In this document: positions 3,474-4,268 of the stretch, piece by piece
How the letters are laid out: every line of letters begins with the position of its first letter
How positions within the stretch are numbered: the first letter of the stretch is position 1
From: Candidatus Heimdallarchaeota archaeon B3_Heim
GTDB taxonomy: Archaea > Asgardarchaeota > Heimdallarchaeia > Hodarchaeales > Hodarchaeaceae
DNA length: 32,000 nucleotides
Direction of reading: 5' to 3'
Assembly (NCBI GenBank): GCA_003144275.1
Contig: NJBF01000001.1
Span: 1-32,000, forward strand
Notes under the pieces: generated by a model
The model's database searches: none
Seen by the model: only the letters and a program-made list of their open reading frames with translations
What the model was told of the DNA's origin: nothing
Position numbers and translations under genes: made by a program

Positions 3474-4268
3474 TTATTTTTTCATAACCTTTTTATCCGA
3501 GACAAGATTTACTCTTTCAGTTAACGTTATGAATAGCCGATGTAACTTTGTTAGATCTAAGTTCTTATTTATTCTGGAATAAATACGAATAGAAGGGTCT
3601 TCTGACGAATCGATAGAAATACGAACAACAGATTCACGAATGGCGTATATCTGTTTAAGAAGCGGTTTATCTTTGAGGAAGAAGTCGCCCATCCGTTCAG
3701 ATGTTGCTTTCATTAAGAAGAATTGATCTAATAGTTCAGAATCAAGTACAACGTCTTTTAACTGAAAAAGTAAATCTTGATGTTTTTTAATTTGTCCTTC
3801 TTCATGATTGGGGATAATTTGTATTTTTGTTTGTAGTTTCCCTTTTTTCGCATTTCCTTCTAAAGCAATGTAGTCATTTGCTCCTGAAAACCATGAGATT
3901 ATCACAGACAACATTAAATGACGCTCTTCCAACGCAAACACGACACGAAAATCTTTGAATGGAATTTTAGATGATTTTTTATATTTAGGAAATAATAGGC
4001 CACCATTGGAGGTTATTTGATCAGTTACTAAATCATCAAATTCATTAGAAAATATTTCGAGAAGAGCATCCTTTGATACATTGATAATTTTATGATTCTT
4101 CCTCCTACCAGACCACAACAGGTAAAAAGTAAAAAATAGAACTAATCCTGGTCCTAAAAATATTACCATATAATCTAGAAGCCCGTATTGCTCAGATTGA
4201 AGAAAGAATTGTCCAATGAAAAGAAATTTTTCCATAAAAGAGTCGTATATTGCCATTTTGAATCTCAA
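3474..4268 (-). CDS. Single-pass membrane protein, CCDC47/DUF1682-like (PAT complex subunit-like)
   Basis: One hydrophobic segment (YMVIFLGPGLVLFFTFYLLWSG) is followed by GRRKNHKI...LLEIFSNEF and VVFALEERHLMLSVIISWFSGANDYIAL. By eye these parallel CCDC47 GKNKNSRL...RELLESNF and [28 protein letters not shown] (recalled, not searched). Confidence 0.55.
   Translation of the reverse strand: MRFKMAIYDSFMEKFLFIGQFFLQSEQYGLLDYMVIFLGPGLVLFFTFYLLWSGRRKNHKIINVSKDALLEIFSNEFDDLVTDQITSNGGLLFPKYKKSSKIPFKDFRVVFALEERHLMLSVIISWFSGANDYIALEGNAKKGKLQTKIQIIPNHEEGQIKKHQDLLFQLKDVVLDSELLDQFFLMKATSERMGDFFLKDKPLLKQIYAIRESVVRISIDSSEDPSIRIYSRINKNLDLTKLHRLFITLTERVNLVSDKKVMKK

Follow-up and report, generated by a model that had tools for sequence, protein, structure and literature searches.

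The literature describes CCDC47 as a eukaryotic factor of the endoplasmic reticulum translocon (PAT complex, multipass translocon). Under the membrane-bound ribosome, its globular domain contacts eL6 and rRNA H25, and its coiled coil is functionally important in humans, in whom truncation causes disease (PMC7505659). The rigid core of the protein also touches cytosolic parts of the insertase, and in fungi the cytosolic domain of CCDC47 interacts electrostatically with the insertase SND3 (PMC12572126). For several other parts of this machinery (Sec61, OST, TMCO1/Oxa1 and TRAP), an archaeal ancestry has been discussed, and a recent study reported archaeal homologues of TRAP and none of CCDC47 (Lewis and Hegde, 2024). 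Here, we describe a gene from a metagenome-assembled genome (MAG) of the Hodarchaeales (Heimdallarchaeia, Asgard archaea; 3.95 Mb, 94% complete), located on the reverse strand of a stretch of 32,000 nucleotides (positions 1 to 32,000 of contig NJBF01000001.1, hereafter the window), the product of which is very probably homologous to CCDC47. In the reading that we prefer, and to which we give a probability of roughly 45%, the gene product is an archaeal protein of the CCDC47/DUF1682 family, divergent and minimal in form, which would act as a docking platform at the membrane insertion machinery.

A CCDC47-like gene in Hodarchaeales

Positions 3474-4268 of the reverse strand form an uninterrupted open frame, as seen in the list of open reading frames (ORF) and its translations, within which the ATG at 4256 is the start used in the record's own protein and in most orthologues, giving 260 residues. 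The four codons preceding it are probably an artefact of ORF calling, being unconserved in the orthologue alignment and falling in the expected transcription-start zone, downstream of a TATA-like box. The frame is not a chance one, because it has 66 close homologues (50-98% identical, all from Hodarch/Heimdall MAGs and every one annotated 'hypothetical protein') and its family has matches in 106 of 400 Asgard genomes; the gene is real, conserved and under strong constraint. Its parts are as follows.

3474..4256, reverse strand: coding sequence of the CCDC47-like protein, 260 residues plus stop, likely start ATG 4256; family profile E 4e-91
4257..4268, reverse strand: TTG-initiated extension of four codons, probably non-coding
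4113..4172, reverse strand: sole predicted transmembrane helix, residues 29-48, Kyte-Doolittle maximum 2.09; superposes on the transmembrane domain (TMD) of CCDC47
4095..4109, reverse strand: juxtamembrane motif G-R-R-K-N, residues 50-54; partner of GKNKN of CCDC47 in hhalign
3477..4094, reverse strand: basic alpha/beta globular domain, predicted to be cytosolic, isoelectric point (pI) 9.5; very probably homologous to the CCDC47/DUF1682 globular domain
3921-3923, reverse strand: R112 in the globular domain, invariant among Asgard members
3873-3875, reverse strand: D128 in the globular domain, nearly invariant among Asgard members

Hydrophobicity is strong in one segment only, residues 29-48 (counted from the ATG at 4256), in agreement with the single transmembrane helix proposed in a first-pass annotation made from the letters alone. 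Since the net charge of the flanks is -2 on the N-terminal side and +4 on the C-terminal side (S-G-R-R-K-N-H-K), the positive-inside rule predicts an N-out/C-in orientation. The protein is thus predicted to be single-pass, with some 28 mostly hydrophobic extracytoplasmic residues ahead of the helix and a globular domain in the cytosol, where ~210 residues would reside. Its C-terminus reads …K-K-V-M-K-K.

Sequence evidence for homology to CCDC47

The Pfam family of CCDC47/DUF1682 (PF07946, profile length 326, gathering cut-off 27.7 bits) is the top family in 22 of 32 close orthologues, where its matches are collinear, near full-length and below the cut-off. The best of them (orthologue P0025, 25.5 bits) aligns residues 39-253 with profile positions 11-252. 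PF07946 is also the top family in several mutually divergent subfamilies, and one Hodarchaeales orthologue carries a precomputed PF07946 flag. Six Asgard relatives exceed the cut-off (38.4, 37.9, 37.0, 35.4, 35.0 and 32.6 bits), and the window protein matches the highest-scoring of these end to end by BLASTP (1e-10, 26% identity over 235 residues). A six-frame search with PF07946 scored above the cut-off in 13 of the 400 Asgard genomes versus none of 14 control genomes, and the matches in these 13 coincide with loci found by the family profile.

Alignment of the Asgard profile with 15 vertebrate CCDC47 sequences by hhalign (E 5-8e-4) paired GRRKN with GKNKN, LLE with LLE and ERHLMLS...D with KRQDLLN...D, which places GRRKN on G156..N160 of vertebrate CCDC47. 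The eukaryotic sequences had been fetched with a CCDC47 fragment of 41 residues, the best 120 of 167 matches being all vertebrate. N54 and R112 never vary in a set of 32 divergent Asgard members, in which G50, D128 and P221 are nearly invariant too, and the partner positions in vertebrates (G156, N160, R227 and D243) are likewise invariant or nearly so. The motif pairs listed in the first-pass annotation are hence recovered for the most part; its third pair is seen solely when the alignment is extended at low confidence. Two human CCDC47 fragments that it had quoted were checked and are letter-exact (residues 220-247 and 295-335 of the chains 6w6l_7 and 7tm3_4). A further pairing, of the 'LQ' directly before the transmembrane helix with HLQN of CCDC47, was set aside as a lead and not evidence, since it occurs only in a low-confidence alignment.

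Two other searches were negative. A sequence search of the PDB with two family profiles did not retrieve CCDC47, the sensitivity of HMMER being judged too low, and no longer homologues were found in a length window that began at 493 residues, above the 483 of CCDC47.

Predicted structure

An AlphaFold2 model built from the orthologue alignment has a mean predicted local distance difference test score (pLDDT) of 75.9 and a predicted template modelling score (pTM) of 0.70. The top three matches of this model in the PDB by Foldseek (E 1e-6 to 8e-6) are 7tm3_4, 9i78_4 and 6w6l_7, of which 6w6l_7 and 7tm3_4 are chains named CCDC47, and the matched range of 9i78_4 (76-372) is the published rigid body of ctCCDC47 made of its TMD plus globular domain, residues 76-370 (PMC12572126). 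VIA scores are Z 17.3 for 7tm3_4 (224 residues, 3.5 Å), 16.5 for 9i78_4 and 12.8 for 6w6l_7, the alignments to the three chains covering 193-224 residues at 3.5-3.7 Å. This agreement is not recall by the predictor, because CCDC47 structures, the first of which were released in 2020, post-date the AlphaFold2 training cut-off of April 2018. The top 12 matches in the Swiss-Prot part of the AlphaFold database all belong to the CCDC47 family (from animals, plants and yeasts), and the top clusters of that database found by Foldseek are DUF1682/CCDC47 proteins. The proposal of a CCDC47-like protein is therefore borne out by the above-threshold PF07946 matches of its relatives, the collinear sub-threshold matches of its orthologues and its best structural matches. 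The folds that might have matched better (DUF3137, TtfA and chaperones of type III secretion systems) are all more distant.

Among these, the next family by VIA is TtfA (PDB 6t84; Z 11.5 over 161 residues), and type III secretion chaperones and other unrelated folds score ~6 or below. TtfA is the mycobacterial trehalose monomycolate transport factor A, an accessory of the lipid transporter MmpL3. Like the window protein, TtfA and bacterial DUF3137 proteins are anchored in the membrane by their N-terminus, beyond which lies a related alpha/beta domain, with a template modelling score (TM-score) in the ESM Atlas of ~0.6 to both, and they share the logic of an accessory protein; the partner of TtfA, MmpL3, differs from that of CCDC47. 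Both are clearly weaker matches than CCDC47, which is nearest among named families (Z 17 vs 11.5, TM-score 0.78 vs ~0.62). DUF3137 proteins reach a Foldseek E of ~1e-6 and an Atlas TM-score of ~0.62, but their Pfam family (PF11335, cut-off 26.1 bits) matches sporadically and in mid-domain, below threshold in 3 of 32 and 3 of 22 members, with a best match of 21.5 bits over profile positions 22-91 of 139. We read this tie as a remote superfamily relation, not membership.

Comparison with eukaryotic CCDC47

CCDC47 (human/rabbit 6w6l_7 and 7tm3_4, C. thermophilum 9i78_4, yeast YNR021W and Arabidopsis At5g49945) is the closest known system. It has in common with the window protein (i) a single N-out/C-in TMD, (ii) a juxtamembrane G-[KR]-x-K-N, (iii) the conserved Arg and Asp of a helix-strand unit and (iv) the alpha/beta fold of the cytosolic globular domain, as seen in the two highest Z scores (17.3 and 16.5). 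The PF07946 matches of the family run collinearly from the transmembrane helix as far as the final helix of the globular domain. The window protein differs by having neither a signal peptide nor the acidic, Ca-binding lumenal domain (~28 residues vs ~135 in vertebrates), by the pI of its globular domain (~9.5 vs ~7.1 in vertebrate CCDC47) and by its sequence, which is ~10% identical in the structural alignment. It stops at the onset of the basic tail of CCDC47, VIA aligning model residues 33-264 with chain residues 135-401.

Family distribution and relatives

When 1.84 billion cluster representatives were scanned in full with HMMER, only 21 relatives emerged, all of ~160-280 residues; the family profile used on the 400 Asgard genomes was built from these. 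The family is near-universal in Heimdallarchaeia (72 of 82 genomes) and patchy among the other Asgard families, with no match in three large ones (0/135, 0/19 and 0/14). A related-locus search with one family profile returned solely Hodarch/Heimdall loci. Each Hodarchaeales genome has two or three deep paralogues, and the genome studied here carries a second, deeply divergent one, as follows.

G000:C84:40188-40835 (L058:6171-6896), reverse strand: paralogue of 241 residues, family profile E 7e-17

This paralogue lies upstream of a gene for a CstA-type transporter on the same strand, and CstA also adjoins related family copies in two other Asgard genomes.

Outside the Hodarchaeales, NCBI automatically names members from Jordarchaeia/Freyarchaeota (such as MBS7249549.1) and Heimdallarchaeota (such as MDH5401070.1) 'DUF1682 domain-containing protein'. 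These proteins of 236-275 residues, near the size of the window protein and sharing its layout of a transmembrane helix plus domain, match the family profile at E 1e-29 to 1e-34 and the window protein at 1e-10 by BLASTP. They exceed the Pfam cut-off (37-38 bits), whereas the Hodarchaeales clade falls below it and is annotated hypothetical; the expectation that an automatic pipeline would call the gene hypothetical accordingly holds for that clade and fails for other Asgard members. They form another clade of the family tree and have no E2 or JAMM gene adjacent.

Other relatives are longer. Orthologues of a Heimdallarchaeia family that we call f4 (~300 residues; L041:6068-6964, L042:6104-7027, L086 and L089-L098) have the N-terminal transmembrane helix and globular domain of the window protein and, unlike it, a C-terminal helix of 60-70 residues rich in K, E and R at the position of the CCDC47 coiled coil, and basic C-terminal tails of differing length occur in other Asgard members. 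The Pfam matches of f4 extend to PF07946 profile positions 314-322 of 326, a part of the profile that also draws spurious matches of 16-19 bits to K/E-rich sequence, and the likeness of the f4 tail to CCDC47 may be compositional. The AlphaFold2 model of an f4 orthologue (pLDDT 45.5) is unusable for fold searches, its tail helix alone being modestly confident.

Gene neighbourhood and candidate promoter

The genes around the CCDC47-like gene, and its candidate promoter, are the following.

4350..4922, reverse strand: JAMM/MPN metalloprotease, upstream and co-oriented; Pfam JAB 8.4e-10
5018..5569, reverse strand: E2 ubiquitin-conjugating enzyme, upstream and co-oriented; Pfam UQ_con 9.1e-24
2888..3451, forward strand: Arf-like small GTPase 'Arf2', convergent, 22 nucleotides tail-to-tail with the CCDC47-like gene; Pfam Arf 4.3e-48
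4289..4300, reverse strand: A-rich element resembling a B recognition element (BRE) and TATA box, aataatattaaa, ~39 nucleotides upstream of the ATG; candidate promoter of the gene itself

In one GTDB genus (21 genomes), the E2, JAMM and CCDC47-like genes and two convergent Arf-like GTPases follow one another in this order wherever the contig reaches, JAMM synteny being seen in 19 of the 20 other loci of the genus as far as contigs extend. By contrast with this genus, 20 loci from other Asgard families and other paralogues have no E2 or JAMM gene within 4 kb; their recurrent neighbours are an NAD(P)HX epimerase/dehydratase, a KaiC-like ATPase, a nucleotidyltransferase and CstA. The KaiC/RecA-like ATPase gene (~225 residues) adjoins the CCDC47-like gene in several Heimdallarchaeia families (L040, L043, L044, L045, L046 and L052), mostly upstream and on the same strand, often with the NAD(P)HX repair enzyme and nucleotidyltransferase nearby.

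The spacer between the JAMM and CCDC47-like genes is 27-189 nucleotides long, the shortest perhaps resulting from a mis-picked upstream ATG. A TATA-like heptamer is found 35-40 nucleotides upstream of the aligned ATG in 17 of the 21 loci of the genus, versus 4.7% of random windows drawn from the same loci, a count that overstates independence because the genomes are related. Although the flanks diverge, both the sequence and the placement of the BRE/TATA-like motif are preserved, many loci showing the consensus gaaaaaYaatttaaattt. Because this element is conserved ~39 nucleotides upstream of the ATG, an own transcript is suggested: the gene probably has its own promoter and a very short leader, and read-through from E2-JAMM may also occur. 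The element at 4289-4300 and its equivalents in L005-L024 are a possible example of an Asgard promoter. A T6 run after the stop codon was considered as a terminator and rejected, lying inside the 3' end of the convergent Arf gene.

Proposed role and alternatives

In the preferred reading, some 28 extracytoplasmic residues would be followed by an N-out/C-in transmembrane helix, the G-R-R-K-N motif and a basic alpha/beta cytoplasmic domain of ~200 residues, an architecture that would match the rigid body formed in eukaryotic CCDC47 by its TMD and globular domain. The protein would form a membrane-tethered platform at the cytoplasmic face of SecYE-beta and a YidC/TMCO1-like insertase, its basic surface contacting rRNA or the cytosolic domain of a partner; a TMCO1/EMC3-like insertase of the Oxa1 superfamily is encoded in the genome. 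This docking mechanism at the translocon is put forward tentatively, as somewhat less probable than not. Blocking of the Sec61 gate, a task of CCDC47 in eukaryotes, would be impossible for the window protein, since the latch/coiled-coil helices are absent.

Several observations weigh against this reading, whether against the homology or against the role. The window protein itself has no match in Pfam, PF07946 giving none at E<=1, and the hhalign probability is 25-33%, which is low because the vertebrate-only CCDC47 template is shallow (effective number of sequences 1.2-1.6). In a maximum-likelihood tree of 32 Asgard sequences and six vertebrate cores, the vertebrate branch has a length of 4.0, with a long-branch warning, and the vertebrates sit beside paralogue C and Jord/Freyarchaeota and not in the clade of the window protein, a placement that is untrustworthy. 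The protein ends at the last helix of its globular domain, residue 260, and has no equivalent of the C-terminal basic coiled coil/latch helices of CCDC47 (~85 residues in vertebrates), which extend to Sec61 and the tunnel exit, as the first-pass annotation had remarked of the coiled coil. Asterix is an obligate partner in the PAT complex, and the Asterix-like protein for which that annotation had suggested searching did not turn up: nothing exceeds the PF03669 cut-off in the same genome or in 83 Heimdallarchaeia genomes, though a short, divergent protein with three transmembrane helices could escape such a search. Two weak Asterix matches in the 83 genomes are interrupted by stop codons, and no small multi-transmembrane ORF recurs beside the gene in 20 loci. 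In none of the lineages examined do translocon, signal recognition particle (SRP) or ribosomal genes recur as conserved neighbours. Finally, ESM Atlas clusters that have no Pfam family, labelled mostly Bacteria and Methanobacteriota and 190-250 residues long, are as close as CCDC47 by TM-score (0.76-0.79 vs 0.78) and closer by language-model features (0.91-0.95 vs 0.80-0.83), and TtfA reaches Z 11.5; the CCDC47 fold alone therefore does not imply a translocon role. The module of a transmembrane helix plus domain is widespread in prokaryotes, and the fold extends beyond Asgard archaea and eukaryotes.

These last points lead to the main alternative. CCDC47, DUF3137, TtfA and the unnamed families would form one broad prokaryotic superfamily of membrane-anchored adaptors, of which the window protein would be a generic member that stabilises or positions a different membrane complex, as TtfA does for MmpL3, and has no translocon role; eukaryotic CCDC47 would be a specialised offshoot. 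Besides the unnamed clusters, this view draws on TtfA serving a lipid transporter, on the Foldseek and sub-threshold Pfam matches of DUF3137, on a genomic context devoid of any translocon link and on the two to three deep paralogues per Hodarchaeales genome, which suggest diversified partners. It has to contend with CCDC47 being clearly the nearest named family by both Z and TM-score, with PF07946 matches that exceed the cut-off in relatives and run collinearly from the transmembrane helix onward, with the G-x-x-K-N, R and D signature common to CCDC47 and with tail-bearing relatives that mirror the eukaryotic architecture. On balance we consider this adaptor role unlikely, while taking it seriously.

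The neighbouring genes offer two further possibilities. The protein could tether the neighbouring E2 and JAMM enzymes, a writer and an eraser of a ubiquitin-like (Ubl) modifier, to the membrane or recruit substrates for them, thereby coupling Ubl conjugation to the quality control of membrane proteins. Recruitment of Ubc7 by Cue1 provides an analogy for such tethering of an E2. The co-oriented order (all three genes on the reverse strand, as first described) is kept in every locus of the genus that contigs reach while the CCDC47-like proteins diverge to 62-85% identity, no long T-run separates the three genes in the window, and the entire Ubl/E1/E2/JAMM cassette lies within 5 kb. Yet this order is limited to one GTDB genus and is absent from other Asgard families and other paralogues, the spacers and the BRE/TATA-like element in 17 of 21 loci do not favour a shared transcript, and no sequence feature ties the domain to ubiquitin or E2 binding, so that a tethering role appears improbable. 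A complex prediction for E2, JAMM and the cytosolic domain scored 0.00 and, having been run without controls, is evidence neither way. The idea of a single E2-JAMM-membrane-protein transcript tying Ubl conjugation to membrane-protein biogenesis, put forward in the first-pass annotation, is not supported, and we regard the adjacency as a lineage-specific gene order that lends weak support to functional coupling. Less probable still, and indeed highly unlikely, is that the protein serves an Arf-like small GTPase encoded nearby as its effector or as its receptor at the membrane. An Arf-like pair is adjacent in all loci of the genus, with Arf2 87-97% identical; in f4 (three genera), an Arf-like gene lies 94-98 nucleotides upstream on the same strand (L041 and L042, examined with wide flanks), in family f5 one lies 2.4 kb upstream, and one further contig has a convergent one. 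The GTPases of f4 and f5 are, however, only 24-27% identical to Arf2 and hence different paralogues, the genome has 48 Arf-family matches, so that chance adjacency is not rare (by our estimate ~2-3% per gene), the convergent orientation in the window offers no operon logic, and there is no such adjacency in f2, f3, f6, f7 or the families outside Heimdallarchaeia.

A more elaborate version of the docking-platform reading, which is a long shot, would combine several of these elements. It would make the CCDC47-like proteins of Asgard archaea ancestral accessory subunits at the archaeal ribosome-SecY-YidC insertion site; the tail-bearing Heimdallarchaeia forms would already extend to the tunnel exit, and the tail-less Hodarchaeales copy would have been recruited next to E2/JAMM for Ubl-dependent quality control of membrane proteins. 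Were this true, a proto 'multipass translocon/PAT' module would be older than eukaryotes.

Possible place among translocon components

The DUF1682 domain in Asgard archaea is latent in databases and undiscussed in the literature searched. Full-text searches found nothing combining CCDC47 or 'multipass translocon' with Asgard, nor anything combining TtfA, CCDC47 and DUF3137; 'DUF1682' occurs in only four unrelated plant papers, and it is unmentioned in the supplements of Eme et al. (2023). The Asgard family has the transmembrane helix, juxtamembrane motif and globular fold of CCDC47, some members adding a charged C-terminal helix, and we infer from this homology that CCDC47 as a translocon component may have archaeal roots and that the archaeal protein would have a translocon function. 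This adds a candidate to the translocon parts inherited from an archaeal ancestor and offers a concrete protein for the cultures of Heimdallarchaeia/Hodarchaeales now emerging. The bacterial and archaeal look-alikes, TtfA and DUF3137 point to an old prokaryotic membrane-adaptor module, and a proper phylogeny is needed before the family is listed as an Asgard-specific 'eukaryotic signature protein'. Descent of eukaryotic CCDC47 specifically from the Asgard family is not claimed, the tree having covered Asgard and vertebrate sequences and being dominated by a long vertebrate branch.

Other features of the region

Arf2 is more conserved across the genus than its neighbours, and the tandem Arf-like GTPases of the window (2326-3451, forward strand) also match the SRP-receptor-beta family. 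The Ubl/E1/E2/JAMM cassette holds two zinc-ribbon-type proteins without a Pfam family (5885-6673, forward strand, and 8296-8628, reverse strand), the one of 262 residues being transcribed divergently from E2. A protein of 586 residues adjoining E1 (8779-10539, forward strand) matches the winged-helix region of UFL1 (E3 UFM1 ligase) below threshold (E 0.0014, 18.7 bits vs a cut-off of 23.2) and has several Cys-rich, zinc-finger-like clusters at its C-terminus, which makes it a possible E3 for the cassette. The region is rich in eukaryote-like genes (10548-12452, reverse strand, and 16900-19017, forward strand): SPFH/Band-7 and ESCRT-II-like EAP30/Vps22-36 proteins adjoin the cassette, and further along two Roadblock/LC7 proteins surround a small Ras/Arf-like GTPase. 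A search of sequencing runs found no RNA run that carries the locus; DNA runs sharing part of it come from marine-sediment and cold-seep metagenomes.

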